The notes: generated by a model not told the origin, from the letters alone. Shown: positions 40,294 through 64,000, counted from the first letter of the stretch. The stretch: 64,000 nt of DNA from Candidatus Sigynarchaeum calidifontis (GCA_030587475.2 JAUQYZ020000078.1:1-64000); one strand, 5' to 3'. Numbers and translations: made by a program.

Positions 40294-41499
40294 TTAATCG
40301 TGTCGATGGTCTTGAAGCGATCGGTACCAATGCGCCCCTCTTGCTAGATACGCGCGGAGGATCGATAAACCCCCTTCAATCGCCGTGACCGAAGCCACGA
40401 CGATGTATATCCATTCCGAAAAGGCCGCGAGGTCCGGTAGCTTGATCGGGATGAACGCGATATAAGCGGCGACGAGCCAACCGACGAGCAGCAGCACGCC
40501 GGTCGTGCCCCGCGCGCCGGCGGGGAACAGCTCGGAAACGACGTGCCACGCGGGAAGCACGAGCGGGATGCCGAGCACGATAACGGGGAAGGTGATGAGG
40601 GTACCCGTGGAAGCCATGTAAAATAGAAGTGCCAAGCCAGCCCCGCCACACGCGATAGCGGCGATGCTTCCCCACACGGGCCATTTTCTCGTAACGATCG
40701 CGACGAGGGCTGCGATCGCCGCCCCGGCGATCACGTTGCTGAACAGCAAGGAGCCGTTGACGGGATCGACGGGGATTTTCAAGTGCCCGAAAAAGACGAG
40801 CATGGCAAGGAGCCCGATCCCGGCGGAGAGGAACCAGGAGATCGTTCCCGTGATGGCCATGGCGACATGCCGCCCCGGCAGCACGGGCAACGGCGAGGGC
40901 TTCATGCCAAGCCATGGCAACAACGTGCCGGCTCCCTTCCCGGCCAAGACGATCAGCCCAGTTGCCGACGCCGCGAGCGACAGCATGAGGCCCGTGGTCG
41001 ACGGGACGAGAAGGGTCGTGAAAAAATGGATACCCGTCCCGAGCGCGAGCCCAGCGGGGAAGATCACGTTACCTTCCCAATTGCCAGAGCGGGAGCACAC
41101 CTCGAGCATGCCGCCGCAAAGCAGGATTGCCAGGCATGCGATGGCCGCGTAGTTCAGTGCCATTGGCTGGGTCTCGACACCGAGAAACCCGACCAGGGGG
41201 ATGGTCTGGTTCGCATACTCCATGACAGGGTACTGCACGAGGGTGAGGAACCCCACGACCGCCATACTCGCGGCGCTCGCAACCGTGACCCAGAACGTCT
41301 TTCCCCGGGTTGTCGTTAGTACCAAGATGCCCGCGAACACCGCCACGCCCAGGAGCACGAAGTCGAAGGCCGTCGCGTTCTCGAAATAACCTCGCGTTCT
41401 CGTGAACAAGTGGAACGGGGCGACCAGGCCAGCATCGAGCCCGCAAGCGACCAACAAGACGCGGAGCGGAAAGCCCGGCCCGTCTTGTCTTGCGGTCAC
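40294..41499 (-). CDS. 12-TM membrane protein (6+6, permease-like)
   Basis: Twelve hydrophobic segments around a central Pro-rich loop; GTG start overlaps the upstream TGA. Confidence 0.7.
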   Translation of the reverse strand: MTARQDGPGFPLRVLLVACGLDAGLVAPFHLFTRTRGYFENATAFDFVLLGVAVFAGILVLTTTRGKTFWVTVASAASMAVVGFLTLVQYPVMEYANQTIPLVGFLGVETQPMALNYAAIACLAILLCGGMLEVCSRSGNWEGNVIFPAGLALGTGIHFFTTLLVPSTTGLMLSLAASATGLIVLAGKGAGTLLPWLGMKPSPLPVLPGRHVAMAITGTISWFLSAGIGLLAMLVFFGHLKIPVDPVNGSLLFSNVIAGAAIAALVAIVTRKWPVWGSIAAIACGGAGLALLFYMASTGTLITFPVIVLGIPLVLPAWHVVSELFPAGARGTTGVLLLVGWLVAAYIAFIPIKLPDLAAFSEWIYIVVASVTAIEGGLSILRAYLARGAHWYRSLQDHRHD

Positions 41500-43058
41500 G
41501 GCACACCACCTCTTGCTCGTTTATTCGATATCGTGGCGAGTAAACCGGTACGCTTGAACAAGAACAAGAGCCCGAGCATCAATGCTGCTGGCATGCCTAC
41601 AAGCAGCAATATCATCCCTGGGGTATGGGTGAACTCGACAAAAACGGCGAGTGGTTGATCTATGGCCGCCGGGTTCGTGTAATTGAGCTCGAGCAGCACG
41701 GGCGTGAAACCGATATCGATCGAGTACCGTGCAACGCCGGTCGTGGTTCGAGAGCCATTCGCGAAGTAATCGTAATTCGTGGCGTGGAAGGGAACGAGAG
41801 CCCCCGCGCTGGAAACCGGAGAAACCAGCGAGATCGTGGCGGACGTTGCGGTGTTCTGCGACCAGAGCACGAGGACGGTCGTTTTGCGAGCAGTGAAGAA
41901 GTAGGTCGCCCACACCTTGCCACCCGCGGGCGCGCGGACAGCCACCCCGCCGGGGAAACACGTGCCGTTCTGGATGAGATGGCTCAAACGCCAGTATGCA
42001 AAACCTGCTGGCTTGAGACCATAGGTATACGTCGTTTTATTGGTGCATTCCATCAAGCCAAATCGTCCCTCGCCTTCCGTGTCGTTCACGTCGCACCAGT
42101 CATTCTGGCAATACCAGAAAACGCTGCTAATGTTTGCCGGGATCGCCTCGGCGTACACCTTCAACACCTGGGTTGCCTGGTATCGATTATTCTCGGCGAC
42201 GAGGGTCGTGCCGATCTGCGCGTTGGTCGCGACCGCCGTGGACATGCCGATTTCCGTGATCCACACGGGCTTGTCTTCCATGCCGTGTGCGGTCATCCAT
42301 TCGTGCACGTCGGCCATCTTCTGGACCAGGCTTTCGGCATTCCTGCCCGAGTACGCGTGGTATGCGATGATATCATACGTGTCACTGAAGTTCTGCAGCC
42401 CATAATAGGCGACCATCTTGTCGAGGTACTCGATCTCGGGGCCGACGATGCCGGGCGAGAGGATGATCGCTGAGGGATCGTTTATTCGCACGATGGACGC
42501 GAGTTTCTGCGAAAACTCGAAAAAGTCGTTGTCCGACCCGATCCAGAAGCCGATGTTCGGCTCGTTCCAGATCTCGTAGTATTTCAGCGTACCCGCGTAC
42601 CTCGTGACGAAAGCTTTCGTAAAGTTGTAGTAGTATGGCCAATCCTCCCTCGGTAAAGCTTTGTTGTTGGGCCACCAGCCCCATCCATAAACAAAGCAAC
42701 CGAGCGACTCGATGCCCCGGCTCGTGAGGTTCCCGAACAAGTTATCGTAATACTGGAAGTTGTAAATGCCCGCGGTCTTGCCGTAATACCTAGCGCACTC
42801 GAACCACTCGATGTTGTTTCGTAATATCCGCGTCCCTAACAATCTCGTGTTGTTCGCGTGGTATTCCCATTGTGCCGGCGCATGGCTGATGCACATCTGG
42901 TCGACGACGGGGATCGCCGACGCCGGCTCCAGGGTAACCGGGCCAGTGACGTCGGCCGGAACGAGGGCATACACCGGTAAACCGACGCCCACCACGATCG
43001 TGGCGATGATCAAGCCGAACTCAAGACTTCGCTTTGAATCATGATCTCCAACGGCCAT
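41496..43058 (-). CDS. Clan GH-A (GH39/GH5-like) glycoside hydrolase anchored at both termini
   Basis: YEIWNEPN (acid/base), AYHAY, PVWITEIG (nucleophile); N- and C-terminal TM helices. Confidence 0.85.
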   Translation of the reverse strand: MAVGDHDSKRSLEFGLIIATIVVGVGLPVYALVPADVTGPVTLEPASAIPVVDQMCISHAPAQWEYHANNTRLLGTRILRNNIEWFECARYYGKTAGIYNFQYYDNLFGNLTSRGIESLGCFVYGWGWWPNNKALPREDWPYYYNFTKAFVTRYAGTLKYYEIWNEPNIGFWIGSDNDFFEFSQKLASIVRINDPSAIILSPGIVGPEIEYLDKMVAYYGLQNFSDTYDIIAYHAYSGRNAESLVQKMADVHEWMTAHGMEDKPVWITEIGMSTAVATNAQIGTTLVAENNRYQATQVLKVYAEAIPANISSVFWYCQNDWCDVNDTEGEGRFGLMECTNKTTYTYGLKPAGFAYWRLSHLIQNGTCFPGGVAVRAPAGGKVWATYFFTARKTTVLVLWSQNTATSATISLVSPVSSAGALVPFHATNYDYFANGSRTTTGVARYSIDIGFTPVLLELNYTNPAAIDQPLAVFVEFTHTPGMILLLVGMPAALMLGLLFLFKRTGLLATISNKRARGGVP

Positions 43059-43059
43059 G

Positions 43060-44256
43060 TCATTCCCTCAAGTAATGCGCTACCTTCTCGACGCCGCGGA
43101 TGTATTGGTCGACGAGCTCGCCTTTCTCGTCCCACGGGAAGTTCGGGAACGAAACGAGACTGGAAACCAGGTTCTCCGTGAATTGCAATGCATTCGGGTT
43201 GTACCCGCGTTCCGTGAAGTAGGCTTGCTTGTGCAGCAGCTCGTACCGGCTTTGACCCACGCGGAGCCCTTCGGTGACAAGCATTTGCACGAGCTCGCCC
43301 CGCTGGATGATGCCCGGCCCGTCGTCGTACACGACCTGGTTCATGAAATAGCCCCGCTTCACGTGTTTCGGGATCTCGGGCAAGAAGAAGCCCGTGCCCT
43401 CGATGTCCTTGATGCCTTTCCGAAACCTCTCGCAATTCCTCGTGATGCGGCCGTTAACCTCGGGAAACTTCTTGAGCTGGCAGAGGGCGATGGCCGCATG
43501 CAGCGGTGATAGCCGGTGCTTCAAGCCTAGTCCCGTCTTCTTGTATTTCTTGTACACGTCGCGCTCGAGGTCGTTCAACCGCTCGTAATGCCCGAGGGCC
43601 ACCGACTTCTCGTAAATCTCGACGTCGTTGGTCACGAGCACCCCTGCCTCGCCTCCCGGCATTATCTTGGATCCTTGCAGCGAGAACGCCGCGCACTTCC
43701 CGAACGTGCCCACCTTCTTTCCCTTGTACTGGGCGCCGTGCGCGTGGGACGCGTCCTCGATGACAGCGATGCCGTGCTTCTCTGCGATCTCCATGATGGG
43801 ATCCATGTCGCACGGGTACCCGTAGAGGTGAACGGGAACGATAGCCTTGGTCTTGGGTGTAACCTTTTTCCTGACATCATCGGGGTCGATACCGAGCGAT
43901 GCCTTCTCGGACTCGCAGAAGACGATCCTCGCGCCGAGGAACGCGGCGGGCATGACCGATGCCCAGTAGGTGTTGGTCGGGGCAATGACCTCATCGCCTG
44001 GTTTTATATCGATGGCAAAGAAGGCGGACAACAAGCACGCGGTGCCGTTTACCTGCGGGAGCGCGTACCTGGTGCCGGTGAACCTCGCGAACTCCTTCGC
44101 GAACTCGTCAACTACGCTCGATGTCGAGATATCTCCCTTGCGGAGCAGCGCGAGGACGGCTTCCTCCTCCTCCTTTCCCATGACCGGCCATTTCAGCAAC
44201 TTGTCCTGGTCCAGCGTGATGGCCTTCGGGCCACCGTCGATCGCGAGTTTATCCAT
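43060..44256 (-). CDS. DegT/DnrJ/EryC1/StrS PLP-dependent aminotransferase
   Basis: NGT, PGDEVI, VHLYG, EDASHAHGA, FSLQGSK, GEAG. Confidence 0.93.
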   Translation of the reverse strand: MDKLAIDGGPKAITLDQDKLLKWPVMGKEEEEAVLALLRKGDISTSSVVDEFAKEFARFTGTRYALPQVNGTACLLSAFFAIDIKPGDEVIAPTNTYWASVMPAAFLGARIVFCESEKASLGIDPDDVRKKVTPKTKAIVPVHLYGYPCDMDPIMEIAEKHGIAVIEDASHAHGAQYKGKKVGTFGKCAAFSLQGSKIMPGGEAGVLVTNDVEIYEKSVALGHYERLNDLERDVYKKYKKTGLGLKHRLSPLHAAIALCQLKKFPEVNGRITRNCERFRKGIKDIEGTGFFLPEIPKHVKRGYFMNQVVYDDGPGIIQRGELVQMLVTEGLRVGQSRYELLHKQAYFTERGYNPNALQFTENLVSSLVSFPNFPWDEKGELVDQYIRGVEKVAHYLRE

Positions 44257-44269
44257 TCGTTAATGCCTC

Positions 44270-45181
44270 TTATTTCTTTTCGATGGCTGGTAATGACGCG
44301 GTAGGCGGGGATGCCGAGAGAACGCGGTTCAAGCCCGCTGCGGACGAAAAACACAAGACGATGATGCCAACGATGTTAAGCACGAACGCGAGCAATTGGA
44401 ACAGTCCAAGTGGCAACCGATAAACGACAGCATCGTTGATAAAGGGTATGATAATGAGGAAGGAGCTCATGGCCGGTACTACCAGGCTGGCATTTCCGCC
44501 CTTCTTAAATGCATATTGGGTAACCCAAAACGCGCACTGGCCGAGTAAAATACTCACGAGAAGCCACGCATTGAATACCGTTCCGGCGATGTCGTGTTTT
44601 CCTGTTGAAACGGAGAACGCGGTGGCCACGGCAGCGAACCCGTTGAAGAGTCCGGCTAGTGAACCAAACACGATGCCGTAGGCACTCCTCGTCTTCAAAG
44701 AATAGATCACGACCGCCGCGGAAATCGCGGCAGCGATTATCGCATAAACGGCGAAATCAGGAGTTGGCAATGGTTCCGAAATATCCGGATAGTCGATGCC
44801 TAGTAAGGCCGTACCGACGATGATGATTGCGATCCCGACGACCTGGAGGAGCGTGATCTTCTCCTTGATGATCCGTGCGGCGAAAAGGACGACCGAGATG
44901 ATGCCGATCCCGCTTAAAGCAACGAAAATCGAGGACTGCTTGAGAAATATCTGTGCAACCACCGACAACACGGCCGCGATTGCGGTCAATAGCGTGCCGA
45001 TGAGCCAGATGATTATTTTCCGCCTATCCTCGGGATTTTCTTTCCACTTTTTAAGGATATCCTTCCCCAACGTTTCGGCACCGATGCGCTGCACCCCTTT
45101 TCCGAGATTAAGGCAAATAGACGTCACTATGGAGAGAAATATGCCCAGAAAGAGGTTGGGTTCGAGCACGATCTGGTTCAT
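44270..45181 (-). CDS. DMT-superfamily transporter, NIPA-like
   Basis: ~9 TM; LGIFLSIVTSICLNLG..VQR.G, WLIG, KEKIT, QYAFK.GNAS.VVP. Confidence 0.7.
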   Translation of the reverse strand: MNQIVLEPNLFLGIFLSIVTSICLNLGKGVQRIGAETLGKDILKKWKENPEDRRKIIIWLIGTLLTAIAAVLSVVAQIFLKQSSIFVALSGIGIISVVLFAARIIKEKITLLQVVGIAIIIVGTALLGIDYPDISEPLPTPDFAVYAIIAAAISAAVVIYSLKTRSAYGIVFGSLAGLFNGFAAVATAFSVSTGKHDIAGTVFNAWLLVSILLGQCAFWVTQYAFKKGGNASLVVPAMSSFLIIIPFINDAVVYRLPLGLFQLLAFVLNIVGIIVLCFSSAAGLNRVLSASPPTASLPAIEKK

Positions 45182-45198
45182 GGTTTAAGGTCATCTCG

Positions 45199-46929
45199 CT
45201 AACCATTTAACCTTGCATCCCAGAACCGGGCGACCTCGTCATCGGGGATGTCCCATGTTCGATTCGTTGGTACGAGACACTCTTTTTTAAAGAATTCTGG
45301 TAGCGAATCATCTTTCTTCATGAAACCTGCTTTCTTGTTGAAATCGAGTTCCTTCTTGAGCATCTCCTTTGCCTTCCGCAAGAGATCGTCCTGGGTCATC
45401 GACGTGCCATAGCGCGCGTTGATGAGCCTGGCTGCACGATCGAGTGTCGTGAAGCTCGGGCCGACGAAATAACAAAGACCGAGCATGTCGCACCCTCCAA
45501 TGAGTACCTGGAGCTCGAACGACAAGTCCAACTTCCCTTTACTGTCGAAAACGTCGCCATAATCTTTTTTCGGGTCGTATCCAGGCCGCTTGTAAATAGC
45601 CGCTCCTGCTGTGTGGTCCGCACCCATGGGGCTCGTGCAGAACGTGGCACCCATGCCCTTGTACGTCCGCGGGTCGTAGGCCGATATGCCTTGCTTCTTA
45701 ACCGTCGGCAATCGCTGGACCCCAAGCTGCGTTCCGACCCGGTGCGCGCCCTTCCCGAAAAATTTACCCTTGTCCGTGGCATTCTTGATCTCCCCGAGCA
45801 CCTCGAACACTGCCCTGGCATCACCGAACTCGTATTTGCCCGCCTCCATGAGCACGCCCATCATGTTGCCAAACTCGATAGTATCGATGCCGATATCGTC
45901 GCATTCGTGATCGATTCTCGCGATCGTGTCGATGTCGTCGATCAGCAAGTTCGAACCGTTCATGGCGATGGTTTCGTATTCCAGGGATGACGTCGCGTGC
46001 CTTCCATCGGGGCCAATGACTAGGTTCGAGCACTGGATCGCGCAGCCAGGCATGCAAGGGATCCCGAACCGCCCCTTGCGCTGGACGATGAGCTCGTGGA
46101 GATGGTCACCGCCGATCTTCTCGGCGCCCGAGAACGTGCCCTCGCGAAAGTTTTTCGTCGGCAAGCCTTGCAGCATCTGGCTGATGCCCACGGTCATCGC
46201 GGTGCCGAGCTTGCTGAACCCCGCGCGGCTGACCTTGAGTTCCTTCGCCCATGGCGTCGCGATGGACTTGAACGCCGGGGCATCCACGTAAGAGATATTC
46301 ACCCCTTTCTTCGGCTCGATGACGATCGCCTTGATGCCCTTGCTGCCCATGACCGCGCCAGGCCCGCCGCGCGCCGCGTGGCGCGTCGGGTAGTTCTGCA
46401 AATCTTGCACGGCGATCGAGGCCATGAGCAGCTGGTTCGCGCCAGCCTGGCCTATCGAGATGACCGATGCAGAGCTCCCGAACCGTTTCACCAGTTTCTC
46501 GCAGATATCATAGTTCCCGGTCGTCCTCGGCTCATCGGCCGGCTCCCACGCGATCGAGCCATCGCTCTTGATGATAAGATAGTGGAAGGTGCCATCGGTC
46601 GGGCAGTTCTCCAGGACGATGGCGCGGATGTCGTGCATGCCGAGCGCAAACCCAGCCTTCCCACCGACGTTTGCTTCCTTAATCCCTCCCGTGAGCGGGC
46701 TCTTGCAGCCAGCGGAAAGGCGTGAGAAGTTGGGCGCGGGCGTCGCGGCAAGAATCCCTGTCGCCAGCACGAGTTTGTTTTCCGGACCTAAAGGATCGGC
46801 TTCCGGATTGACTTCCTTTGCAATGATAGTTGACGTGAATTCCCGGCCGCCAAAAAACGCGAGCTCTGGAGGTAATTCTTCGATAATAGCGTCTCGGGTC
46901 TTCGTGTTCACGCGGATGATTTTTGCCAA
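45199..46929 (-). CDS. aor: Aldehyde:ferredoxin oxidoreductase (tungsten-dependent AOR family)
   Basis: DPLGPEN, KSPLTGGIKEAN.GG, AARGGPGAVMGSK, CxxxCxxxC, EYET, DTIE. Confidence 0.92.
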   Translation of the reverse strand: MAKIIRVNTKTRDAIIEELPPELAFFGGREFTSTIIAKEVNPEADPLGPENKLVLATGILAATPAPNFSRLSAGCKSPLTGGIKEANVGGKAGFALGMHDIRAIVLENCPTDGTFHYLIIKSDGSIAWEPADEPRTTGNYDICEKLVKRFGSSASVISIGQAGANQLLMASIAVQDLQNYPTRHAARGGPGAVMGSKGIKAIVIEPKKGVNISYVDAPAFKSIATPWAKELKVSRAGFSKLGTAMTVGISQMLQGLPTKNFREGTFSGAEKIGGDHLHELIVQRKGRFGIPCMPGCAIQCSNLVIGPDGRHATSSLEYETIAMNGSNLLIDDIDTIARIDHECDDIGIDTIEFGNMMGVLMEAGKYEFGDARAVFEVLGEIKNATDKGKFFGKGAHRVGTQLGVQRLPTVKKQGISAYDPRTYKGMGATFCTSPMGADHTAGAAIYKRPGYDPKKDYGDVFDSKGKLDLSFELQVLIGGCDMLGLCYFVGPSFTTLDRAARLINARYGTSMTQDDLLRKAKEMLKKELDFNKKAGFMKKDDSLPEFFKKECLVPTNRTWDIPDDEVARFWDARLNG

Positions 46930-47043
46930 TGGATCAGGCCTCTGGTATGATGTCGATCAATTATTATAGCTGATGGCTGAGGTACTATTAAACGGCGGAA
47001 CCATAAAGAGGTTCTTGCTTATCACTGAAAGATCGATGATATT

Positions 47044-48594
47044 ATGGCTGGAAAAAAGATACTCGTTATTGACAGTGGCGGTTCTGGTATCCGCGCGATG
47101 ATTTTCGACGATAGAGGCCAGATTGTAGCGCGGGAATACGAAAAAACGCCGCACACCACGCCAGAACCGGGTGCGGTGGAACACGATCCGGAAATGCTGT
47201 GGCAAGCGTTACTCTCGGTCAGCAAACGATTGCTCGCATCGCAGAAAGATGCCTCCAAGGATATCGTGGCGATGGGCCTCTGCAACCAGCGGGGGAGCTT
47301 CGTCCTCTGGGAAAAAGCAACGGGCCAGCCCATCACGAATCTTATCAATTGGGCAGACGTTCGCGCTGCGAAAACGTGCGATGCCATGAACCATGACAAA
47401 AAATGGCTCAAGCTCAAGGGCTTGGCGAAATTTGCGAGTATTCTTACGCGCAAAACCATGTTCACGGCGACATCCCTCCTTAATTTTACCACGGATCATG
47501 CGAGCATCCGGTTGAAATGGCTGCTCGACAAGGAGCCCGGTCTACGGGCGCGTTGCAAGGCGGGCGAGGTCAAGTTCGGCACGCTCGACACGTGGTTCAT
47601 CCACAAGCTCACGGGCGGGAAGGTGCACGCTTCCGATGTCACGAACGCCGGGGCGACGGGCCTTTATAATCCATTCGATCTCAAGTGGAACAAGATCTTT
47701 TTCGACTTGTTCGACATCGACGCGAGCTTGTTTCCCGAGGTCAAGGATTCCAACGGAGATTTCGGCACGACCGACCCAGCAGCGTTTGATGGCTTGTCCA
47801 TCCCGATCCGCGCGGCGGCCGGAGACCAGATGGCTGCCCTCTTCGGCCAACAATGCTTTGATCCAGGGTTGGTGAAGATATCGCAAGGTTCGGGCGCGTT
47901 CGTCGATCTCAACGTTGGCCCGAAGCCAAAACTTTCGAAGCGCGGCTTGTTGCCGATGATCTCGTGGCGCATCAACGGCAAGGTGAATTACTTGCTCGAG
48001 GGAATCGTGGCAACGGCGGGCACCTTGATCGACTGGCTTGGCAGCGGCATAGGCTTGTCCGACACGCCCAAGGTGCTCAACGAACTCGCCGCCGAATGCA
48101 CTGACACGGCCGGCGTTACTTTCGTCCCGGCCAACGCGGGGATACGGTTCCCGTATTTCAACCCGGAAGCCAGGGGTTGCATCTTCGGCCTCACGCTCGC
48201 CACGCACAAGAGGCACGTCGCCCGTGCCGTGCTCGAGGGCATTGCCTTGTCGCTCTACGATGTCATTCACGGCATGGAAGTCGACACTAAGGTGCCCATC
48301 AAGACTATCAAGGTCGACGGCGGCGTGTCAAAATCTGACATCCTATTGCAATGCCTGGCGGATTTCGCGAACATCAAGGTGATGCGGGCTCCAGAACCGG
48401 ACATGACGGCGACGGGCATCGCCTACCTGGCGGGCCTTGGGGCGGGTATCTGGAAAGATCTCGATGATCTCAAGAAGATCGAGCAGAAATACCAGACATT
48501 CGAGCCCAAGATGAGCGACGCCGACCGCCAGAAGAAGCTCGCGGAGTGGAAAAAAGCTATCCGCGCGGTCCTGGATGTCTATTCTACCAAGTAA
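47044..48594 (+). CDS. glpK: FGGY-family glycerol kinase, GK5-like
   Basis: [29 protein letters not shown]; insert after WADVRA resembles GK5. Confidence 0.85.
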
Positions 48595-48609
48595 TTTTCC
48601 CTTTTTTAT

Positions 48610-49584
48610 CTACCAACCTTCTTTCAAGCCGAGGTCGACGAGCTGGCCATACACGAGTGCCACGATGATATTGACGAGCATGTCGGTAGGCAGCTTGTCC
48701 GTGCGGGACGGCGCGATCTCTTTAAGGAAATCTTCGACGACGTGGCGTACTCCACCACCCTCTTCGAATTTTCGCTTCACGTAATCCTTGAAAAACGTCG
48801 TGAATTCGAGGTTCTCGGTCAACACTTGCATCACGGCATCTTTCCCCTTCACGGCGCCGAAATGGCAGTATCCGACAGCATCGGGCTTGAGATCGATGAT
48901 TTTTTGCAAGCTCCTGAGATAGGTGGTGGTGCTATACTCTGGTGGCATCGACGTGCCAAAGGTGACGAGCTTGGTCGAGTTGAACAGCGTGCCTGCAGCC
49001 TCGGCACAGAACACGAACGAGGCGTGCCCGTCGTTCTCGAGCAGCGTGGGGCAGCAGTGGTCGTCGGTATGCCCAGGCGTCGAAACGAGCTGGAACGATT
49101 TTCCCCGTTCGAGCCCCGGGATCGGCAAAGGCGTGTCCGGGTCGACGATCTCGTATGCCTCCTCTGGAAGAGGGCGCATCTCGCCGACGAACTCGCCGAA
49201 CGTGCGCCGCGCGTGCTGCACGTGAACCGCGGGGTTTTGCAGCCGGTCGTGCGTCTTTCGGGTCGTGAGCACCTTGATGGCAGGGTTCTCTGCCTTGAGC
49301 ATTTCCCATAACTTCCATCCACCACCAAAATGGTCGAAATGATAGTGCGACGGGACGAGATATTTTATTTTTTCCTTGGAGGATATGCCTAATTTCTTCA
49401 TGAAGCGCAACAGTCTATAGACATCATCCGACGTGCCCGTATCGATGATGGCCACGGCTTCGGGGGTTTCAAGCACGAACGTGGAGATGAGTTTCTTGAC
49501 CGCATACGCTTGGATGTCGATGTGGTAGATCTCCTTGGTGAGTTTCCCAGAAGCAGTGATGATGGGGGATGGGGATGGTTCCAT
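48610..49584 (-). CDS. MBL-fold metallo-hydrolase
   Basis: IDTG, SHYHFDHFGG, TPGHT, YCHFG; ATG 49584 avoids overlap with the divergent gene. Confidence 0.9.
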   Translation of the reverse strand: MEPSPSPIITASGKLTKEIYHIDIQAYAVKKLISTFVLETPEAVAIIDTGTSDDVYRLLRFMKKLGISSKEKIKYLVPSHYHFDHFGGGWKLWEMLKAENPAIKVLTTRKTHDRLQNPAVHVQHARRTFGEFVGEMRPLPEEAYEIVDPDTPLPIPGLERGKSFQLVSTPGHTDDHCCPTLLENDGHASFVFCAEAAGTLFNSTKLVTFGTSMPPEYSTTTYLRSLQKIIDLKPDAVGYCHFGAVKGKDAVMQVLTENLEFTTFFKDYVKRKFEEGGGVRHVVEDFLKEIAPSRTDKLPTDMLVNIIVALVYGQLVDLGLKEGW

Positions 49585-49648
49585 GGTTGCTAATAGGCGC
49601 GCGTCGATTATTAATCGTCCCGAATGGATAAGTAAGTCGACAGATACC

Positions 49649-51979
49649 ATGAACCTCGCGCCGATCCGGTCTTTCACCCGCACGGGCGCCGTGGCCGCAG
49701 CGTGCTTCTTACTCGGCATCCTTTTCTTGACCGACAATTTCCTCATTCCCCAGGGCAATTATCTCGTGTTCGGCATCTCGCTGGGGATAGGCGTGCTTTT
49801 GCCACTATTCCTGGGCATCAACAAGGCGGTGGCAAGGTGGGCATTGGTTTTATCTTCCAGCGTTGCTGCATTTGTCACGTTGCTCTTGATCAGCGGTTTC
49901 ACGCTCTCCGTGGCGCTTGCCATACTCTTCGTGGCCTTGCCTTCTGTCGTCGTGTTCGGGTTTTCCCAATCGTTGATGGGCGGAGGTGATCCCGCGTTGT
50001 GGCGCAAGAGGTTCGTCACCATGGCTCTCGCGTTGTGCTTCGTCGTGCTCGCCAGGTCGATCAAGATCGCCCCGTTGGCGACGTGGAACGGGTTGTACAC
50101 GATTGCTGGCCTGTTCATAGCAAACGCGATCGTTAGCGGGATGAAAGCCGATAATGACGGCGATCACGCAAGCATCGATGGAAATGCCGATGACTCGTCA
50201 TCTCACCCGCTCGGAATGAAGGGTTGGACGTATTTCATCGCCGGGATCGCCTTGGCATGCATGATCGGGGTGATCGCGTTCGTACCAGGGTTCCTTGGCG
50301 ATTTTGCGTGGGTGGACCCGAACCCGATAGCGCCAGGCGTGCCAAGGGATGTCATCGAACGGCCGTGGTCCCCGTGGGACACGATCGCCATCATTGCAAC
50401 GGGCGTGGTGTTAGCATGCTCGGTCTTGTGGTACTTGCAACGCAAGCCCGGGCGATCGTTGCTCGTGAGCACGTGCATGTTCTCGGGATTTTGCGCCGCG
50501 TGGTTGATGGCGTGGTCAAGCGCGACGATACCCTTCTATGTATGGTCGTTGATTGGCATCCCGTGCTATCTGGGTGCAATAGCGAGCTTGTTGCTCTTCA
50601 TCGCAAAGTGGTTCAAGCCCCCGCGACCGGACGCATGGCGAATGGGGGAGCGGTCCGTAGTCGGCGGGATGACTCGCCGCGCATGGCTTATAGCAATACC
50701 CTTCCTCGGGTCCACGGTAGCCGGGCTCATGTTCCGCGATATCTTCAATTGGAGCATGTTTCTCGTTCCAGTCATGGTCATCATTCCCGTGATCACCGGC
50801 ACCGCGATGCTGGTACAACTATGGATCTTGTATGCTGTACGCGGCCGATTTGTTCTCCTACCGGAAATGCCATTCGATGTCCCGAGAGCGGGGAGAAAAA
50901 GGCGCGTGAACGCCGCCATTGTCGCGTTTCTCGTCTTCGGTGGCATTTACACGGTTTCCTACGCTAGTTATCATGCGCACTTTTCTGGAAAAATGGCCTT
51001 CTTGTACGCATGGGGGGGTAGTATCGATAGCTGGGCACCGGACGTGGAAAGCAAGGTCACCCACGCAACCGTCTTCTCTCTTGATCTCAACACGACTACC
51101 GGCGTCGTGTCCAGCACATGGACGCCAGCTAACAACACGCCGTACCAAGCCCTCGGGATCAAGGTCATGCCGACGATCTTCCTCGGGTTCACCGACTTGT
51201 ACTTCATGCTCAAGAATGCAGGAGGGCGGCTCGATACATTCATCACGACATTGCGAGCAACCCTCGTGGCGACGGGCGTGGACGGCGTGTCCATCGATTT
51301 CGAGTTGCTGGAGAATCCTCCTGGTTTGCCTGCAGTAACGAACGAGGATTGGATCGTCGCATGGGAAAGGATAAGTGCTGAGGCATGCCATGCTGGCGGT
51401 GAAGACTTCATCCTCGGCGTCTACTGGCAGATCAACGGCCGCTACACGCGTGACCAGGTGAACCGGTATTTTCGTTCCGTCGATATTCACGTCGAGAACA
51501 TGTACGAGACGCACAAGCAAACTGGAAACCAAGGCAGCACGACCGTGATCGAGATATCGATAAGTAATATAATTGAAAGCTACGCGCTGCTCGACGACAA
51601 GGTCATGATGGCCAAAATAATGCCTGGTTTGCCCGTATACCATTACATCTGGATCGACGGCGTTAAGGGCGCGCTGAACGAGTCGCTCATCGTGCCCGGC
51701 GGCAGCTGGTGGTGGTTCCACTCGTATACGACGCTAGAGCAAGTTATGGTCACGAACGGTGCCACGTTCCGCTGGGACCCGTTCAGCGGGGCGACGTGGG
51801 CCCGGTTCACGATGACGCTGCAAGACAACCGCACGGTCACGGTCGTCGCATACTTGCACGACACCGCCCACCTGGCCCGCACCATGCACGTGATGGAAGG
51901 ATACGGCATCACCGGCATTATGCTCTGGCCCGCGCACCAGCCCGTGCCGCCGGGCTTCATTGAAACCTTTTACCCGTGA
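49649..51979 (+). CDS. 12+1 TM membrane domain fused to a C-terminal GH18 (chitinase-like) domain
   Basis: 13 hydrophobic segments, then GVDGVSIDFE, NMYE, PGLPVY, G.TGIMLW. Confidence 0.75.
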   Translation: MNLAPIRSFTRTGAVAAACFLLGILFLTDNFLIPQGNYLVFGISLGIGVLLPLFLGINKAVARWALVLSSSVAAFVTLLLISGFTLSVALAILFVALPSVVVFGFSQSLMGGGDPALWRKRFVTMALALCFVVLARSIKIAPLATWNGLYTIAGLFIANAIVSGMKADNDGDHASIDGNADDSSSHPLGMKGWTYFIAGIALACMIGVIAFVPGFLGDFAWVDPNPIAPGVPRDVIERPWSPWDTIAIIATGVVLACSVLWYLQRKPGRSLLVSTCMFSGFCAAWLMAWSSATIPFYVWSLIGIPCYLGAIASLLLFIAKWFKPPRPDAWRMGERSVVGGMTRRAWLIAIPFLGSTVAGLMFRDIFNWSMFLVPVMVIIPVITGTAMLVQLWILYAVRGRFVLLPEMPFDVPRAGRKRRVNAAIVAFLVFGGIYTVSYASYHAHFSGKMAFLYAWGGSIDSWAPDVESKVTHATVFSLDLNTTTGVVSSTWTPANNTPYQALGIKVMPTIFLGFTDLYFMLKNAGGRLDTFITTLRATLVATGVDGVSIDFELLENPPGLPAVTNEDWIVAWERISAEACHAGGEDFILGVYWQINGRYTRDQVNRYFRSVDIHVENMYETHKQTGNQGSTTVIEISISNIIESYALLDDKVMMAKIMPGLPVYHYIWIDGVKGALNESLIVPGGSWWWFHSYTTLEQVMVTNGATFRWDPFSGATWARFTMTLQDNRTVTVVAYLHDTAHLARTMHVMEGYGITGIMLWPAHQPVPPGFIETFYP

Positions 51980-51985
51980 AAGGCC

Positions 51986-52954
51986 ATGCCAAATCCCATT
52001 CCGAACATCATATTCGTACTTTTCACGAGCAACGAACGTCAATTAGTCACACCGGCATCGCGTGGCTACAACGGGAGCGCGTGCCTCGCGGGTGCATCAT
52101 GGGCCACCAATTTCGTGTCGCTCTTATCCAGCAGCGTCCCGTCGCACCATCGCGTCTGGGGTAGCGATGGCAAGGTGGGCATCCACGTCGATCCCCTCCC
52201 CGTTCCTTTGAAAAAGGCTGGCTACCGTGCAGCGTTCATAGGCCCCCACGAAGCGAGCAAGCTAGCGGCACAGTGCGGTTTCGATGACCCTATAATAGTC
52301 CAAGACGGGGACGGCTATGGTGAAGCGACGGCCATCATCGAGCGCCATCATGGCAATCCCGTATTCTTGACGTGCATCGCACGAGAGAAACCATCACGAT
52401 GGCAAGGATTTGCCCCGCAACTCGCGGCGCGCAAGGGATCGCCTGGTATCGTCTTGCTGACAAGTATCGTACCCCCATCAATGCCGGGCAATGCTTTAAT
52501 CACGAAACCAGACGACCTTTCATCACCCTTTATTTTTTATCCTAATGAAGGTGGCAAGCGCGTCAATGGATTCGCACATCTCTGGTCGATCATCGATATA
52601 GCGCCGTCGTTGCTCGGCTTGCTCGGTGTCAAGGCACCGTACACGATGGTGGGCAAGGACATGCACCAGCTCTGGCTCGGGAAAACTCGGAAGTCGATCC
52701 GCTTTCCACGCAACCGGTGCCTATTCGATCATGCCGACGGGTCGAAGACCATGTGGAACGGCCGGTACTTGCTTTCTGTTCATCCGGGTACGGAAACCGG
52801 TGAGATATTCGATTTATATCAAGATAATGGCACGGCAAGGAATTTATGGGACGATCCATCGGCCGTGTCCGTTAAAAGCAGGTTGTTGCTGGAGCTGTTA
52901 TGGGCCCAGCTCGACAAGGAATGCACGCCGATGCCTCGCATAGCCGGAGCGTGA
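51986..52954 (+). CDS. Degenerate sulfatase-fold protein (catalytic motif lost)
   Basis: PNIIFV, AGYRAAFIG, IDIAPSLL, GEIFDL; no CxPxR. Confidence 0.7.
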   Translation: MPNPIPNIIFVLFTSNERQLVTPASRGYNGSACLAGASWATNFVSLLSSSVPSHHRVWGSDGKVGIHVDPLPVPLKKAGYRAAFIGPHEASKLAAQCGFDDPIIVQDGDGYGEATAIIERHHGNPVFLTCIAREKPSRWQGFAPQLAARKGSPGIVLLTSIVPPSMPGNALITKPDDLSSPFIFYPNEGGKRVNGFAHLWSIIDIAPSLLGLLGVKAPYTMVGKDMHQLWLGKTRKSIRFPRNRCLFDHADGSKTMWNGRYLLSVHPGTETGEIFDLYQDNGTARNLWDDPSAVSVKSRLLLELLWAQLDKECTPMPRIAGA

Positions 52955-52959
52955 AAACA

Positions 52960-54543
52960 ATGCCGAGACCGAACATCCTCCTCATCACGACCGACCAGCA
53001 CCACCGGTCGGTGCTCGGCTTCAACGATCCCGCGGTGATCACGCCGAACATCGACAAGCTCGCGCGGGAAGGCACGGTGTTCACGCGAGCGTACTGCCCG
53101 AACCCGACGTGCACGCCGACCCGAGCGTCGATCATCACGGGCCAGTATCCCAGCCAGCATGGTGCATGGTCGCTCGGTACCAAGCTGCTGGACGACGTCC
53201 CGACGATCGGCGACGAGCTGCGAAAGGCCGGGTACCGCACGGCGTTGATCGGGAAGGCACATTTCGAGCCGCTGAAGTCGACAGACGAGTTCAAGTCGCT
53301 GGAATCCTATCCCATCATGCAAGACCTGGATTTCTGGCGAAAATTCCACGGGCCATATTACGGGTTCGAATATATCGAATTAGCTCGAAACCACACTGAC
53401 GAGGCGCATGTCGGGCAGCATTACGCGATCTGGATGGAGGAGAAGGGCTGCAATAACTGGCGGGATTATTTCGTGAAGCCGACCGGCACGCGAACCTACG
53501 TCGACAGGTACCGGGATGCGCCGCTCTGGCCGATCCCGGAGGAATACCATTACAACAAGTGGATCGCCGAGGCAAGCAATAAAAAGCTCGAAGAGTATGC
53601 GCGGAACAATGAACCGTTTTTCTTGTGGGCGAGTTTCCTCGACCCGCACGCGCCCCGCATCGTGCCAGATCCCTGGCACAAGATGTACGACCCGGCCACG
53701 GTCGACGTGCCGGAACCCGCCCCGGGCGAGCACGACAAGAACCCGCCGCACTTTCGCTTCGCCCAGAAGACCCCCTCTTCGCCCAGCCGCTTCAAGCGGT
53801 TCTTGCACGCGGCCAAATCGCTGCTGAGTAGCTTCGCGGTCGCAAAATACTACGCCGATTTCAAGAAGCACGGCGTTCCTATACAAGGGCTTCACGGCGT
53901 GCATCCGCACCTCTACGACAAGGCCCGGCTCGCCAGGGAAATCGCTGCATACCGCGGCATGGTGTCGTTGATCGACAAGTACATGGGGGAAATCCTGCAC
54001 CAGCTCGACCGGCTCGGGCTCGCGGAAAGCACGATCGTGGTGTTCACGACCGACCACGGGGACTTCTTCGGCCAGCATGGCCTGATCACGAAAGGCCCAT
54101 TCCACTACGAAGACTTGTTGCGCATCCCGCTCGTCGTGCGCTATCCGGGCAAGGTGGCAGCCGGCAAGACGTCCGACGCATTGCAATCGCTCGTCGACCT
54201 GGCACCCACCTTCTTGTCGCTGCTCGGTATACCCATCCCCTCCTTGATGTCCGGCGTCGACCAGGCCGGCGTGTGGACGGGCAAGGTTGGCTCGGCGCGT
54301 GATCACGTGCTCGTCGAGATGCACCACTCGCCCTCCCTAATCCACTTGAAAACGCTCGTCGACCGGCGGTACAAGATCACGGTCTACAACGAATCGATCC
54401 TCGGCGAGCTGTTCGATCTGCAAGAGGATCCCGGCGAGAAGCGCAACTTGTGGTCGGATCCCGCGTTCTCGGAGCTGAAGCACCAGATGCTCTTCAAGCT
54501 CGTACAAGCCGAGCTCGAAAAGGATATGAAATTGAGGAATTAA
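52960..54543 (+). CDS. Sulfatase (Cys-type formylglycine motif)
   Basis: PNILLITTDQH, CTPTRASIITG, GKAH, DPH, TTDHG, ELFDL..DP.E. Confidence 0.93.
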   Translation: MPRPNILLITTDQHHRSVLGFNDPAVITPNIDKLAREGTVFTRAYCPNPTCTPTRASIITGQYPSQHGAWSLGTKLLDDVPTIGDELRKAGYRTALIGKAHFEPLKSTDEFKSLESYPIMQDLDFWRKFHGPYYGFEYIELARNHTDEAHVGQHYAIWMEEKGCNNWRDYFVKPTGTRTYVDRYRDAPLWPIPEEYHYNKWIAEASNKKLEEYARNNEPFFLWASFLDPHAPRIVPDPWHKMYDPATVDVPEPAPGEHDKNPPHFRFAQKTPSSPSRFKRFLHAAKSLLSSFAVAKYYADFKKHGVPIQGLHGVHPHLYDKARLAREIAAYRGMVSLIDKYMGEILHQLDRLGLAESTIVVFTTDHGDFFGQHGLITKGPFHYEDLLRIPLVVRYPGKVAAGKTSDALQSLVDLAPTFLSLLGIPIPSLMSGVDQAGVWTGKVGSARDHVLVEMHHSPSLIHLKTLVDRRYKITVYNESILGELFDLQEDPGEKRNLWSDPAFSELKHQMLFKLVQAELEKDMKLRN

Positions 54544-54551
54544 AAAGGCGA

Positions 54552-57062
54552 TCATTTGACTTCTCGCACGTATAACCTCATTCCACCGGTTCCTCTTAAT
54601 CGAAGCCGTTTCATAACCGCGCGCACGATGAGCCGGTACGCGATCAAGATCGTGGTGAGGAAAATCACGACACCCAGCACGAGCCCGTCCAGGAGCAAGG
54701 GAACGTCGAACGTCGCGACGGGGTCGATCGCGGGATCTCGCCTGACGATCGCGCCGTCCTTGATCGTCAAGAACGTTACCACGTAGACGAGCAGGCCCTT
54801 GATGGCGTTGATCATGAACCCGAGGACGAAGCAAATGACTATCACCGTGAGGTACGCGAACCCGCCGCCGATGTTATCCCGCGTGATGGCCCGTCGCACG
54901 TTCACGACGAGCGTTCCGAAATACTGGATGACGTACATGCCCGACACGAAGGCCCAGATGACGATGAGGCGCCCGGCCAGGATGAAGAGGATCCCGCCGA
55001 CCCCCAGGATCAAATTGGAGAGTAACAGGTAGTCGTTGGAGAATATCGTCGTCCAGTCGAACCGTGACCTTTCGGCGCTGCGCCGCTGCCATATCGCGAC
55101 CACGAGTATGATGCCAGCGGCCACGAGGGCCGGGATGTAGTGCATCGACACGGCCAGGAAGTTCGTGCGCACGAGATTGATGATCGAGTTCCCGAACGGG
55201 ATGAGGATTCCCGCGATGAGAGAGTTCATTACCATCATCATCTGGATCGGGATCTTGATCCTCCACCCTCCAAGCCTTGTTCTATAGCGTGGTAATCCCT
55301 CCAACGGCAATGGCACGCTCGGCTTGGCGGCTCGCCCCGCGAGGATTGCAAGCCCGACGGGGATCGCGAGGAAAGCGATCGCTAGCGTGTCGAAGGCCAG
55401 CACGAGGAGGAAAAAGCCGCCCGCGACTAGCACCGCTATGGTGATAACCCGCAAGAGATGCTCCACTTTGCACTTGATCGAGAACAACGCGACTGCCGCG
55501 ACGAACAAGAACAAGAGTGCCAGGTCGAAGAACGTGGTCACGAAGATCATCTGGTAATGGTTGCCGAGCGCGAGATAAGGGTAGAAGAGAAGTAATAGAA
55601 AGGCTGCTATCAAGATATAACGAGACAGGAACCGCAAGAATACGAGGCCAATGGCGATGCTGAATAGCAATATCGCGGCGAACGTGATGAGGATCTCCGT
55701 GGTGGAAAGCCCGAGGATGATCGCGTACGAGAAGGACTTCTGGATCACCCCGTAGACGCCAATGGTCAAGCTCGTCGCGACCGTCGAAAACAGGCCGCCA
55801 ATGGAGATCCCCAGAAGCACCTCGTTGTGCTTCATCTCGTTCAAGGACAATCCCGTACCCGCAGAACCATTCGTTCCTTCCTCTCGCCTTTTCTTGAAGG
55901 AAAAGCCGCTGCACAATGCAGGTGACCCGGGCCTCCGGATGATGAGCACGAGCATGACGATGCCGGTTGCCAAGGGAACGAGCGCCGGGAACGCGGGAAA
56001 GGCGATCGGCTGGATCACGTGAATCTTCTCGTATTCCGCCTTGATCGTGTCCTTGATGAGTATCGGGTTGAAGTCTTTCAAGTCCGGATTCGTCGCCGGG
56101 TCTTGATAATCCCAGATCCACCAGTACGCGCCCTTGAACCACGGCGCCGTCCAGATCTTCGACTGAAAGAGAGAGATGTAATAGTTACGCATCTCGTCGA
56201 TGTCTTTCTCCTCGGATATCTGGTTGTCGTTCGGGATTATGTTAGAACCGTCCTTGGCTTGGATGCCGATCTCGGTGAACGCGATTGGACGGTTCCATTT
56301 CAGCGCCAGCTCTTCCAGCTCGTAATACGAGCCGTCCCATATGGTCCGCAATTCCAATACTGACGGGTCCCAGGCGATGGTCATCATGGAATACATGCTG
56401 ATGCCGATCATGTCGACCGCATCCCACCAGTCGATGTGCGCGTAGGAGTCGTGGTTGGCCGAATAGGTGATTTTACCGTGGTAGACGGCGCGCACCTCGT
56501 TGATCAACTGCCGGACCTCGGCGGAATGCACCTGCATGTTTCCCATCTCGCAACCGATCGAGAACAGCTCGACGCCACCGGCCTCTGCGGCCTTGGCATT
56601 CTCGACAATCCACCACGTGTAATTCGCCATCCATTCGGTCGAAAAATGTATGTATGATCGCCAGTCGTAGACTTTCGCCAGGTTAAGCATCGGCTTGTAG
56701 AATACATGAAGCCCTTTTGAGGTAGCATTCCGAAAACAATCGGTCATGTTCGCGAATGTATCACTATATTTGCCCATTTTAATGTCGGTGCTGTTCAAGT
56801 AATCCTGCCACCACCAGTGGTTGATCGCGACCCATTCCACGCCGATAGATCTCATCTCGTCGAATTCTTGTGCGGTTGCTGTCGTGTTGAAAGAAGAATT
56901 AGTCCACGTGGTGAAACTCATGCCCTTCTGGAAGGGGATCCCAGCGCTGATACCGGACAGTGTTAGCAGTCTCGTGTTGAACGCTGCGATGTTGACGACG
57001 CTGCATGATAGCAAGGCGATCCCGGCTATCAGCGAGATGATTTTGGTTTGCTTGGCATCCAT
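54552..57062 (-). CDS. GH113 (beta-mannanase-like) domain fused to a 1+12 TM membrane domain
   Basis: KGMSF, KPML, WR..I, IGCEM, ITYSAN, WWDAVD, FTEIG, WFKGAYWW.W; then 13 hydrophobic segments. Confidence 0.8.
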   Translation of the reverse strand: MDAKQTKIISLIAGIALLSCSVVNIAAFNTRLLTLSGISAGIPFQKGMSFTTWTNSSFNTTATAQEFDEMRSIGVEWVAINHWWWQDYLNSTDIKMGKYSDTFANMTDCFRNATSKGLHVFYKPMLNLAKVYDWRSYIHFSTEWMANYTWWIVENAKAAEAGGVELFSIGCEMGNMQVHSAEVRQLINEVRAVYHGKITYSANHDSYAHIDWWDAVDMIGISMYSMMTIAWDPSVLELRTIWDGSYYELEELALKWNRPIAFTEIGIQAKDGSNIIPNDNQISEEKDIDEMRNYYISLFQSKIWTAPWFKGAYWWIWDYQDPATNPDLKDFNPILIKDTIKAEYEKIHVIQPIAFPAFPALVPLATGIVMLVLIIRRPGSPALCSGFSFKKRREEGTNGSAGTGLSLNEMKHNEVLLGISIGGLFSTVATSLTIGVYGVIQKSFSYAIILGLSTTEILITFAAILLFSIAIGLVFLRFLSRYILIAAFLLLLFYPYLALGNHYQMIFVTTFFDLALLFLFVAAVALFSIKCKVEHLLRVITIAVLVAGGFFLLVLAFDTLAIAFLAIPVGLAILAGRAAKPSVPLPLEGLPRYRTRLGGWRIKIPIQMMMVMNSLIAGILIPFGNSIINLVRTNFLAVSMHYIPALVAAGIILVVAIWQRRSAERSRFDWTTIFSNDYLLLSNLILGVGGILFILAGRLIVIWAFVSGMYVIQYFGTLVVNVRRAITRDNIGGGFAYLTVIVICFVLGFMINAIKGLLVYVVTFLTIKDGAIVRRDPAIDPVATFDVPLLLDGLVLGVVIFLTTILIAYRLIVRAVMKRLRLRGTGGMRLYVREVK

Positions 57063-63678: not shown

Positions 63679-64000
63679 ATGAACGGCCGCCTCTTGACTT
63701 TCCATGTCTCGTATTTCTCGGTCTTATTTGCACGGGCATTGATCCACGCGTATTTACCATTGTCCTTGTTGCAATACACGAACGCATCGATGTTCATCGT
63801 CGGGCTCAATTATGCGATCCCTTACATCTCGCAGCTCACGACCATGGTATATTTCGGCAAGGTACTAGACAACGGGACATCATCGAGGCGCTATGACTTC
63901 CTGGTCATCCTCGGTTTCTCGGCATTGGCCATGCAGTTCGTTCTTTTTTATATCATGGGAAACGGGAGCCCAGATGCCGTGATTTTCCTTGTCGTTTCGA
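63679..64000 (+). CDS. MFS transporter, 5' part (runs off the window)
   Basis: Manual translation MNGRLLTFHVSYFSVLFARALIHAYLPL...VG...FGKVLD..., with an MFS motif-A-like GxxxD. Confidence 0.6.
   Translation, partial: MNGRLLTFHVSYFSVLFARALIHAYLPLSLLQYTNASMFIVGLNYAIPYISQLTTMVYFGKVLDNGTSSRRYDFLVILGFSALAMQFVLFYIMGNGSPDAVIFLVVS

Follow-up and report, generated by a model that had tools for sequence, protein, structure and literature searches.

What is a membrane domain of twelve helices doing beside a surface glycosidase? This question is raised by a 64,000-nucleotide stretch of DNA from Candidatus Sigynarchaeum calidifontis (GCA_030587475.2, JAUQYZ020000078.1:1-64000; the window hereafter), which is contig C140 in an Asgard genome of 5.0 Mb and 89% completeness (G000). 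Between positions 40294 and 57062 the window encodes three glycosidase-like proteins of the glycoside hydrolase (GH) types GH113, GH18 and GH39, each tied to a membrane domain with twelve predicted transmembrane (TM) helices, twice within one polypeptide chain and once as a pair of overlapping genes. An initial annotation had described these genes as a candidate 'cut-and-import' system, i.e. surface glycosidases hard-wired to divergent relatives of the major facilitator superfamily (MFS). Here we report a computational analysis of the enzymes, of their membrane domains and of related units in Asgard genomes.

We give about an even chance to the explanation that these are surface units in which hydrolysis is coupled to uptake. 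Each glycosidase, i.e. the GH113 mannanase-like, the GH18-like and the GH39-like enzyme, would sit on the outside of the cell's one membrane, attached to a private, highly divergent MFS-fold domain. In the two fusions a linker helix would make this attachment covalent, and in the split form the C-terminal helix of the enzyme would serve instead. Oligo- and monosaccharides would be released beside the outward-facing mouth of the MFS-like domain, which may take these products up before they diffuse away, and neighbouring cytoplasmic enzymes (a sulfatase, an FGGY sugar kinase and a GH63-like hydrolase) would complete their degradation. Transport by the MFS-fold domains, its direction and its substrates are what we infer.

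Three glycosidases and their membrane partners

The gene at 54552-57062 (minus strand) encodes an 836-residue GH113-TM-MFS-like fusion, as judged from Pfam matches, hydropathy and the layout kept in relatives. All of its parts are read from the minus strand and comprise a signal-anchor TM helix (residues 8-30), a GH113 catalytic domain predicted from Pfam and sequons to be extracellular (residues 54-321; 56100-56903), a linker helix which according to hydropathy and the structural model returns the chain to the cytoplasm ahead of the 12-TM domain (residues 357-376; 55935-55994), and the putative MFS-fold domain itself (residues 407-814; 54621-55844). The catalytic domain was identified in the Pfam scan by PF22612 (E = 3e-51; 175 bits versus a curated cut-off of 27). 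Its nearest solved structure is the endo-beta-1,4-mannanase 7dv7 (E = 2.3e-25), with which both catalytic glutamates align in the motifs IGCEM and FTEIG, the latter of the form F(T/M)E(I/A)G. A K/R-rich loop (KKRREE) directly follows the linker helix, and hydropathy delineates 12 hydrophobic helices at residues 415-814, arranged 6+6 and split by a loop at residues 579-597. The GH113-TM-12TM fusion is retained in every relative found.

The GH18 fusion (49649-51979, plus strand; Pfam, relatives) shows the mirror layout. Its homologues begin at the ATG at 49649 and not at the upstream TTG at 49535, which gives a protein of 777 residues. A 12-TM domain with an acidic central loop (49685-50839, plus strand), delineated by hydropathy and devoid of a Pfam match, is followed by a basic loop with the stretch RAGRKRR, by a 13th TM helix evident from hydropathy (50906-50968, plus strand; residues 458-478 when numbered from 49535) and by a GH18-like domain recognized from Pfam and its motif (51047-51937, plus strand; residues 505-801 in the same numbering), which is predicted to be extracellular, the 13th helix carrying the chain out to it. 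The domain matches PF00704 with E = 2.6e-6 and 27.8 bits, below the cut-off of 29.6, over positions 20-315 of the 317 in the profile, and a precomputed PF00704 match is present on some members of the fusion family. A sequence search of the PDB with the domain alone returned no solved structure. The D-x-x-D-x-D-x-E motif is represented by DGVSIDFE, invariant in all eight family members (8/8), in which the D-x-E pair is retained and the middle Asp is replaced by Ser. Relatives of 774-783 residues keep the 12TM-TM-GH18 fusion.

In the third case enzyme and membrane domain are encoded separately. A 520-residue GH39-like protein (41496-43058, minus strand), predicted by Pfam and PDB profile searches to be a surface glycosidase of clan GH-A, has TM helices at both its N- and C-terminus (the latter at residues 483-503), and its gene overlaps that of a stand-alone 12-TM protein of 401 residues with a predicted MFS fold (40294-41499, minus strand). 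The GH39-like protein matches PF11790 (Glyco_hydro_cc; E = 1.6e-5, 25 bits, above the cut-off of 21) and PF01229 (GH39; E = 0.004, 16.4 bits, below the cut-off of 26), and its family profile retrieves from the PDB a GH39 xylosidase (E = 3.6e-12) and PslG (E = 2.5e-10 over residues 57-270). N165-E166-P167 and T268-E269, i.e. the NEP and TEIG glutamates, are invariant in the family. Based on these sequence comparisons the placement of the enzyme in clan GH-A can be regarded as secure. All three glycosidases have intact catalytic residues that do not vary within their families, and the layouts originally proposed for this locus, GH113-TM-12TM, 12TM-TM-GH18 and the GH39-like gene with a GTGA overlap, were all confirmed at their positions.

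Based on hydropathy and the AF2 helices, all three membrane domains have 6+6 TM helices with cytoplasmic N- and C-termini, i.e. the topology of the MFS. Lys and Arg in the short loops are biased towards the cytoplasmic side, with 24 of 111 residues inside versus 6 of 60 outside in the GH113 fusion, 22/101 versus 2/46 in the GH18 fusion and 10/61 versus 4/54 in the stand-alone protein. In the GH ectodomains N-x-S/T sequons number 12-23 per 1000 residues, which exceeds the expectation about 2-3-fold, as compared with 2-9 in the cytosolic enzymes of the locus; the GH113 domain has 6 sequons where 2.5 are expected. Charge bias and sequon enrichment together indicate that all three GH domains lie outside, in good agreement with the earlier suggestion that the extra helix serves to place the enzyme there. 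A cytoplasmic position of the GH domains, named beforehand as the outcome that would speak against this layout, is indicated by neither measure.

Conservation is highest in the extracellular loops and lowest in the cytoplasmic loops of each of the three families (outside/TM/inside 0.43/0.37/0.23, 0.68/0.57/0.35 and 0.80/0.65/0.57). Typical MFS transporters show the opposite pattern, with the cytoplasmic motif A dominating conservation. A concentration of conserved positions in loops that could touch the enzyme might be expected if the MFS-fold domains were non-transporting partners, acting in docking or as chaperones in the positioning, stabilisation or trafficking of the surface enzyme, a role that UNC93B1 plays for Toll-like receptors. 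We consider such a role unlikely. Twelve helices would make a costly holder, and the GH113 module has conserved polar and charged residues buried within its TM helices (Q504, D513, K603, N613, N752 and K755), which argues against a domain that only holds.

The split pair provides further evidence on this point. Here the TGA of the GH39-like gene and the GTG of the 12-TM gene share the four bases GTGA (41496-41499, minus strand), the minus strand across the overlap reading GGTGGTGtgccGTGAcc, and a Shine-Dalgarno-like GGTGGTG lies upstream at 41504-41510; the stand-alone gene thus appears translationally coupled to the GH39-like gene. The same 4-base overlap is found in L001 (Hodarchaeota), in L020, L021 and L022/L023 and in the P0033 contig. 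In the Hodarchaeon pair (L001) the glycosidase is 48% identical to that of the window and the 12-TM partner about 21%. The gene order is reversed, with the genes still adjacent, in the genomes G133 (L024 715-3499, with an 8-base overlap) and G134 (L015), and the enzyme of the reversed pairs keeps both TM helices. Overall, the two genes are kept coupled in at least seven Asgard lineages and in two gene orders, in neighbourhoods that are otherwise unrelated across the carriers. The two genes of the pair travel together, with at least one inversion of their order.

Complex prediction for the GH39-like enzyme and the 401-residue protein yielded an ipSAE of 0.67 with the best control at 0.00; 58 of 80 solved complexes attain the mark applied to this score, against 2 of 110 mismatched pairs. 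At least 88% of contacts recur between the runs, with a pLDDT of 75 or more for the partner. In the predicted interface the C-terminal TM helix of the enzyme (residues 485-505) lies against TM3 and TM6 of its 12-TM partner, whose extracellular loop 87-93 is contacted by residues 242, 377-381, 401-403 and 451 of the enzyme. The prediction supports binding of the two proteins. Given the conserved 4-base overlap and the predicted helix-docked complex, the view that the pair is the GH113 layout in split form is supported.

The contacts between the GH domain and the extracellular loop would also fit a non-transporting partner. However, as the GH39-like enzyme has two TM anchors of its own, a pure anchoring role of the partner is improbable, and this enzyme nevertheless keeps its partner in all of the lineages counted above. 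By layout the split form also recalls heteromeric transporters. In MCT1-basigin and MCT1-embigin a glycosylated ancillary protein uses its one TM helix to contact the lipid-facing helices in the N-domain of an MFS protein, as predicted here for residues 485-505 on TM3 and TM6; basigin differs in being an immunoglobulin-domain chaperone and not an enzyme. In the SLC3/SLC7 transporters (4F2hc or rBAT with a 12-TM light chain) a glycosylated ectodomain of glycosidase fold (GH13-like) sits on one TM helix and is bound to a 12-TM secondary transporter, as in the split pair. These eukaryotic complexes differ in that the light chain has the LeuT/APC fold, the ectodomain is inactive and the subunits are linked by a disulfide, and we draw an analogy without claiming homology.

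Fold and family of the membrane domains

The proposal that the membrane domains are MFS-like is supported by predicted structure, to an extent that varies among the three, and finds no counterpart in their sequences. When compared as whole domains with solved MFS transporters, the models showed structural similarity, with UNC93B1, LtaA, Spns, an Rv1410 homologue and the MCT1 structure 7y1q among the matches. The predictions argue strongly for a MFS fold of the stand-alone 401-residue protein, moderately for one of the GH113-linked domain and weakly for one of the GH18-linked domain. For the latter, an ESM Atlas model of low confidence (pLDDT 0.56) matches MFS_1 clusters with TM values of 0.56/0.62 over 353 residues.

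Several results weigh against the assignment. The case for the GH18 module is built on that model with its pLDDT of 0.56. For the GH113 module a single AF2 model out of five attained a pLDDT of 70, the other four remaining below 60. That one model draws two continuous helices of 42-43 residues at places where hairpins would be expected from hydropathy and charge bias. Pfam scans up to E = 1 with every member of the three family alignments gave chance matches only and no MFS family, and the family profiles found no MFS match among PDB sequences up to E = 10. A six-frame search of the genome with PF07690 gave 52 matches, none of them in the three genes. A regular-expression search of the three domains found neither MFS motif A, G-x-x-x-D-(R/K)-x-G-(R/K)-(R/K), nor its D(R/K)xG(R/K) core; the TM2-TM3 loops are short (1-4 residues) and unconserved, and the TM2-TM3 and TM8-TM9 loops, taken as one group, range from 1 to 5 residues and are poorly conserved. 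Scores in an ESM feature search (0.76-0.82) were below the meaningful level.

Canonical MFS genes are readily seen in the same genome, in which about 45 MFS_1 genes are recognisable. None of these in the genome is fused to a hydrolase, the long frames around the MFS_1 matches being explained by 5' read-through. One canonical MFS_1 gene starts at the end of the window (63706-64000, plus strand) and runs past it.

The MFS assignment could be a modelling artefact, the domains being unrelated polytopic anchors of other folds. The family alignments are shallow (8-21 sequences), and the missing sequence link to the MFS and the four poor AF2 models of the GH113 module would be accounted for. On the other hand, independent ESM Atlas models likewise point to the MFS, and the 6+6 topology with N-in/C-in orientation fits it, so that we regard an artefact as very unlikely. 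The lack of an MFS sequence signature and of motif A, as well as UNC93B1 among the structural matches, could equally be cited for the non-transporting partners considered above, and the extreme divergence between the modules would fit a relaxed constraint on the cavity.

Other structural matches point to a further possibility. LtaA and Rv1410 are examples of MFS proteins that export or flip glycolipids or oligosaccharides, and LtaA, Spns and an Rv1410 homologue are all among the fold matches. The three units might accordingly be envelope-glycan machines, in which the MFS-fold domain exports or flips a glycolipid or oligosaccharide while the glycosidase trims or remodels the cell's own surface glycans. 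The likeness of the GH39-like domain to PslG, an exopolysaccharide-processing enzyme, counts for this alternative and against import. PslG, from the Pseudomonas Psl exopolysaccharide pathway, is itself a TM-anchored GH39-type endoglycosidase; it differs in having no MFS partner, and the Asgard enzyme has a C-terminal TM helix in addition. We consider envelope-glycan processing distinctly unlikely in view of the gene contexts and of the enzymes found elsewhere in the genome, which are described below.

The initial annotation had also regarded the three membrane domains as one module used three times. This did not hold. BLASTP and hhalign comparisons among the three domains and all of their N- and C-terminal halves found nothing, the best hhalign probability being <2%. 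A common origin of the three modules and an internal 6+6 duplication are both without sequence evidence by these methods. As far as sequence comparison can tell, the three membrane domains are not one module but separate, tiny, Asgard-only families. The stand-alone family has 20 matches at E <= 0.001 among 1.84 billion representative proteins, all of 67-494 residues. In a set of 400 Asgard species genomes, 6 carry the GH113-type module, 2 the GH18-type module and 5 the stand-alone type, with 3 additional marginal matches for the last. The nearest database relatives are labelled Candidatus Lokiarchaeota, and more distant ones Promethearchaeota, Hodarchaeota and Sigynarchaeota.

A shared KPS(V)PLP motif had been put forward in support of a common module. 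It is literally present, although not conserved beyond the closest relatives: the KPSVPLP of the GH113 fusion is kept in one homologue of >80% identity, and the stand-alone protein has KPSPLP and not KPSVPLP, kept in four of its five most similar aligned homologues. The motif lies in the cytoplasmic central loop, the least conserved one, and carries no weight.

Related units and known systems

To place the three units in context, the genome was scanned for open reading frames with at least 9 helices and a soluble domain of at least 230 residues, which gave 31 candidates. Besides the expected classes (P-type ATPases, FtsX and STT3), these comprise two GH9, six GH123 and one GH5 fusion, two fusions to peptidase S15, and fusions to other enzyme-like domains (BD-FAE esterase, BNR, ThuA-like and PHP); in eight the soluble part has no Pfam match. 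At least 15 further proteins of 9-13 TM helices are fused to catabolic hydrolases in the same genome, and the chemistries of these enzymes are unrelated. The GH9, GH123, GH5, S15 and BD-FAE fusions are located at C7:19953-23132, C95:11480-14746, C46:5244-8540, C115:183-3113, C192:13280-16525, C209:52329-55448, C211:430-3945, C219:2341-5712, C125:53313-56258, C99:5703-8636, C268:6624-8456 and C96:11205-13583. Both orders occur among the further fusions, 12TM-TM-enzyme and anchor-enzyme-TM-12TM, and by BLASTP there is little resemblance between most of their membrane parts.

That so many classes of catabolic enzyme occur as partners is the strongest reason to prefer nutrient acquisition to envelope biosynthesis. 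Among the partners found in this genome are cellulase families, GH123 and X-Pro peptidases, which are catabolic, and this speaks against trimming of the cell's own glycans. A broader form of the uptake reading is tentative, and we would give it somewhat less than an even chance. Loki-type Asgard archaea, being without an outer membrane that could retain the products of hydrolysis, would solve the 'public goods' problem through a private, fast-evolving MFS-fold importer for each extracellular hydrolase, i.e. for glycosidases of at least six families, X-Pro peptidases and esterases, joined in either order via a 13th helix or docked as a helix-bound pair. This would amount to a genome-wide feeding strategy not recognised before, with about 20 units here, and its layout of an enzyme ectodomain, a single helix and a 12-TM domain would prefigure eukaryotic heteromeric transporters.

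The statement that no family with this architecture had been described proved incorrect. FbGH17B (FORMB_24740) of Formosa sp. Hel1_33_131, encoded in a laminarin polysaccharide utilization locus, consists of an N-terminal 12-TM MFS domain and a GH17 beta-1,3-glucosidase (exo-glucosidase) (Unfried et al. 2018, PMC6246565). Fusions of this type are reported to be common in marine Flavobacteriia, and coupling of hydrolysis to uptake was proposed by the authors (PMC6246565). In related bacteria MFS and GH17 proteins are encoded by neighbouring genes (preprint 10.64898/2026.01.22.701063). The MFS domain of FbGH17B is recognisable, by Phyre2 (PMC6246565) and as an 'MFS-family sugar-transporter' (PMC11005184), and the effect of the MFS-GH17 link on activity is still open in later papers.

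The likeness to FbGH17B lies in a single chain with a 12-TM MFS domain and a glycosidase, and the version with neighbouring genes parallels the split GH39 pair. FbGH17B is bacterial, sits in an inner membrane beneath an outer membrane and combines a sequence-recognisable MFS domain with GH17. The Asgard units are archaeal, have no MFS sequence match and use a 13th helix to put the enzyme outside a single membrane; they occur in both domain orders and in a split form, with GH113, GH18 and GH39-like enzymes. Having neither an MFS sequence match nor a GH17 domain, they do not belong to the FbGH17B-type MFS-GH17 fusions and share with these the kind of architecture. In the literature on Asgard or archaeal fusions of glycosidases with transporters, and on GH113 enzymes with TM domains, no description was found, the flavobacterial MFS-GH17 fusion being the sole precedent. 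What is known is the concept of an enzyme-MFS fusion; what is new are the unrecognised Asgard-only membrane families, the two orders, the split form and the several enzyme families.

Two other arrangements are worth comparing. Sus-like polysaccharide utilization loci of Bacteroidota and GlpQ/GlpT of E. coli likewise combine surface or periplasmic hydrolases with a dedicated importer and cytoplasmic finishing enzymes. They differ in that the components are separate proteins and importers such as SusCD and GlpT can be recognised from their sequences, and in that the products are retained by an outer membrane or periplasm. In the AT3-SGNH acyltransferases OafA and OafB a polytopic domain with an extra linking helix carries a catalytic domain outside; these proteins have the AT3 fold with 10 TM helices, transfer acyl groups and act in biosynthesis.

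If the MFS-fold domains import the products, the units would offer a cell with only one membrane a compact alternative to bacterial polysaccharide utilization loci, and the growth of Asgard archaea on polymers would be explained. The analysis also defines at least three membrane-protein families, restricted to Asgard archaea and not described before, that sequence annotation leaves blank, and counts of carbohydrate-active enzymes in Asgard genomes hide transporter-like partners. The units would represent natural enzyme-transporter chimeras in both orientations, with a split form that offers a testable helix-docking interface.

Gene surroundings

The split pair follows three genes which Pfam identifies as a DegT-type aminotransferase (43060-44256, minus strand), an EamA-like transporter (44270-45181, minus strand) and an aldehyde:ferredoxin oxidoreductase (45199-46929, minus strand), in an order conserved in L020. 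The position of the pair behind DegT and EamA in close relatives is a biosynthetic-looking context, and it weighs against uptake. The pairing of DegT and EamA in one operon is reminiscent of ArnB/ArnEF and would suit envelope-glycan machines. However, the DegT/EamA context is lost in the distant carriers L001, L021 and L022, there is no glycosyltransferase in the block, and a sulfatase predicted to be cytoplasmic follows the GH18 fusion.

This sulfatase (52900-54543, plus strand) has the formylglycine motif CTPTR and lacks a signal peptide and TM helices. An enzyme of this kind would need an imported substrate, consistent with uptake by the GH18 unit. A sulfatase stands after the GH18 fusion in the window, in the P0031 contig (46% identity) and in L026 (42% identity). 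Cytoplasmic sugar-processing genes close to the surface enzymes also argue against non-transporting partners, and the locus has no other sugar importer besides the EamA gene. Between the GH18 fusion and the sulfatase lies a degenerate sulfatase-like gene of 322 residues (51986-52954, plus strand) with weak Pfam Sulfatase and SGSH_C matches, in which the C/S-x-P-x-R motif was not found. A 318-residue gene occupies its position in the P0031 contig, the locus of the 46%-identical relative, so that the sulfatase-like gene may be an inactive paralogue that has been conserved.

A GAF histidine kinase without TM helices (57147-58499, minus strand) adjoins the GH113 fusion both here and in L027 and is a possible regulator of the locus. 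Its position would fit a role of the 12-TM domains as sensors or transceptors that report the availability of substrate or product; MFS sensors of the Snf3/Rgt2 type are known. As the domains have no cytoplasmic output domain, and their cytoplasmic loops and tails are least conserved, a sensor is extremely improbable. In L027 (GCA_040960625.1) a PIN/MazE toxin-antitoxin pair (11568-12305) lies by the GH113 fusion in place of the sulfatase-GH18 block of the window, so that the GH18-sulfatase unit appears separable.

The last gene of the GH39 operon (38744-40276, minus strand) encodes a protein of 510 residues, in which three TM helices at the N-terminus are combined with an ectodomain rich in sequons (9 N-x-S/T versus 2.9 expected). 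In the close relatives G281 and L020 the gene is conserved and likewise follows the 12-TM gene. The ectodomain has no Pfam match, the only similarity being an insignificant one to GH76 (E = 0.61).

Finally, a gene of the metallo-beta-lactamase fold (48610-49758, minus strand) is divergently adjacent to the GH18 fusion in the window, in the P0031 contig and in L026. Genes for an FGGY kinase, a GH63-like hydrolase and a metallo-beta-lactamase-fold protein recur near these loci, the last also being found near the FGGY kinase in L020 and L027.

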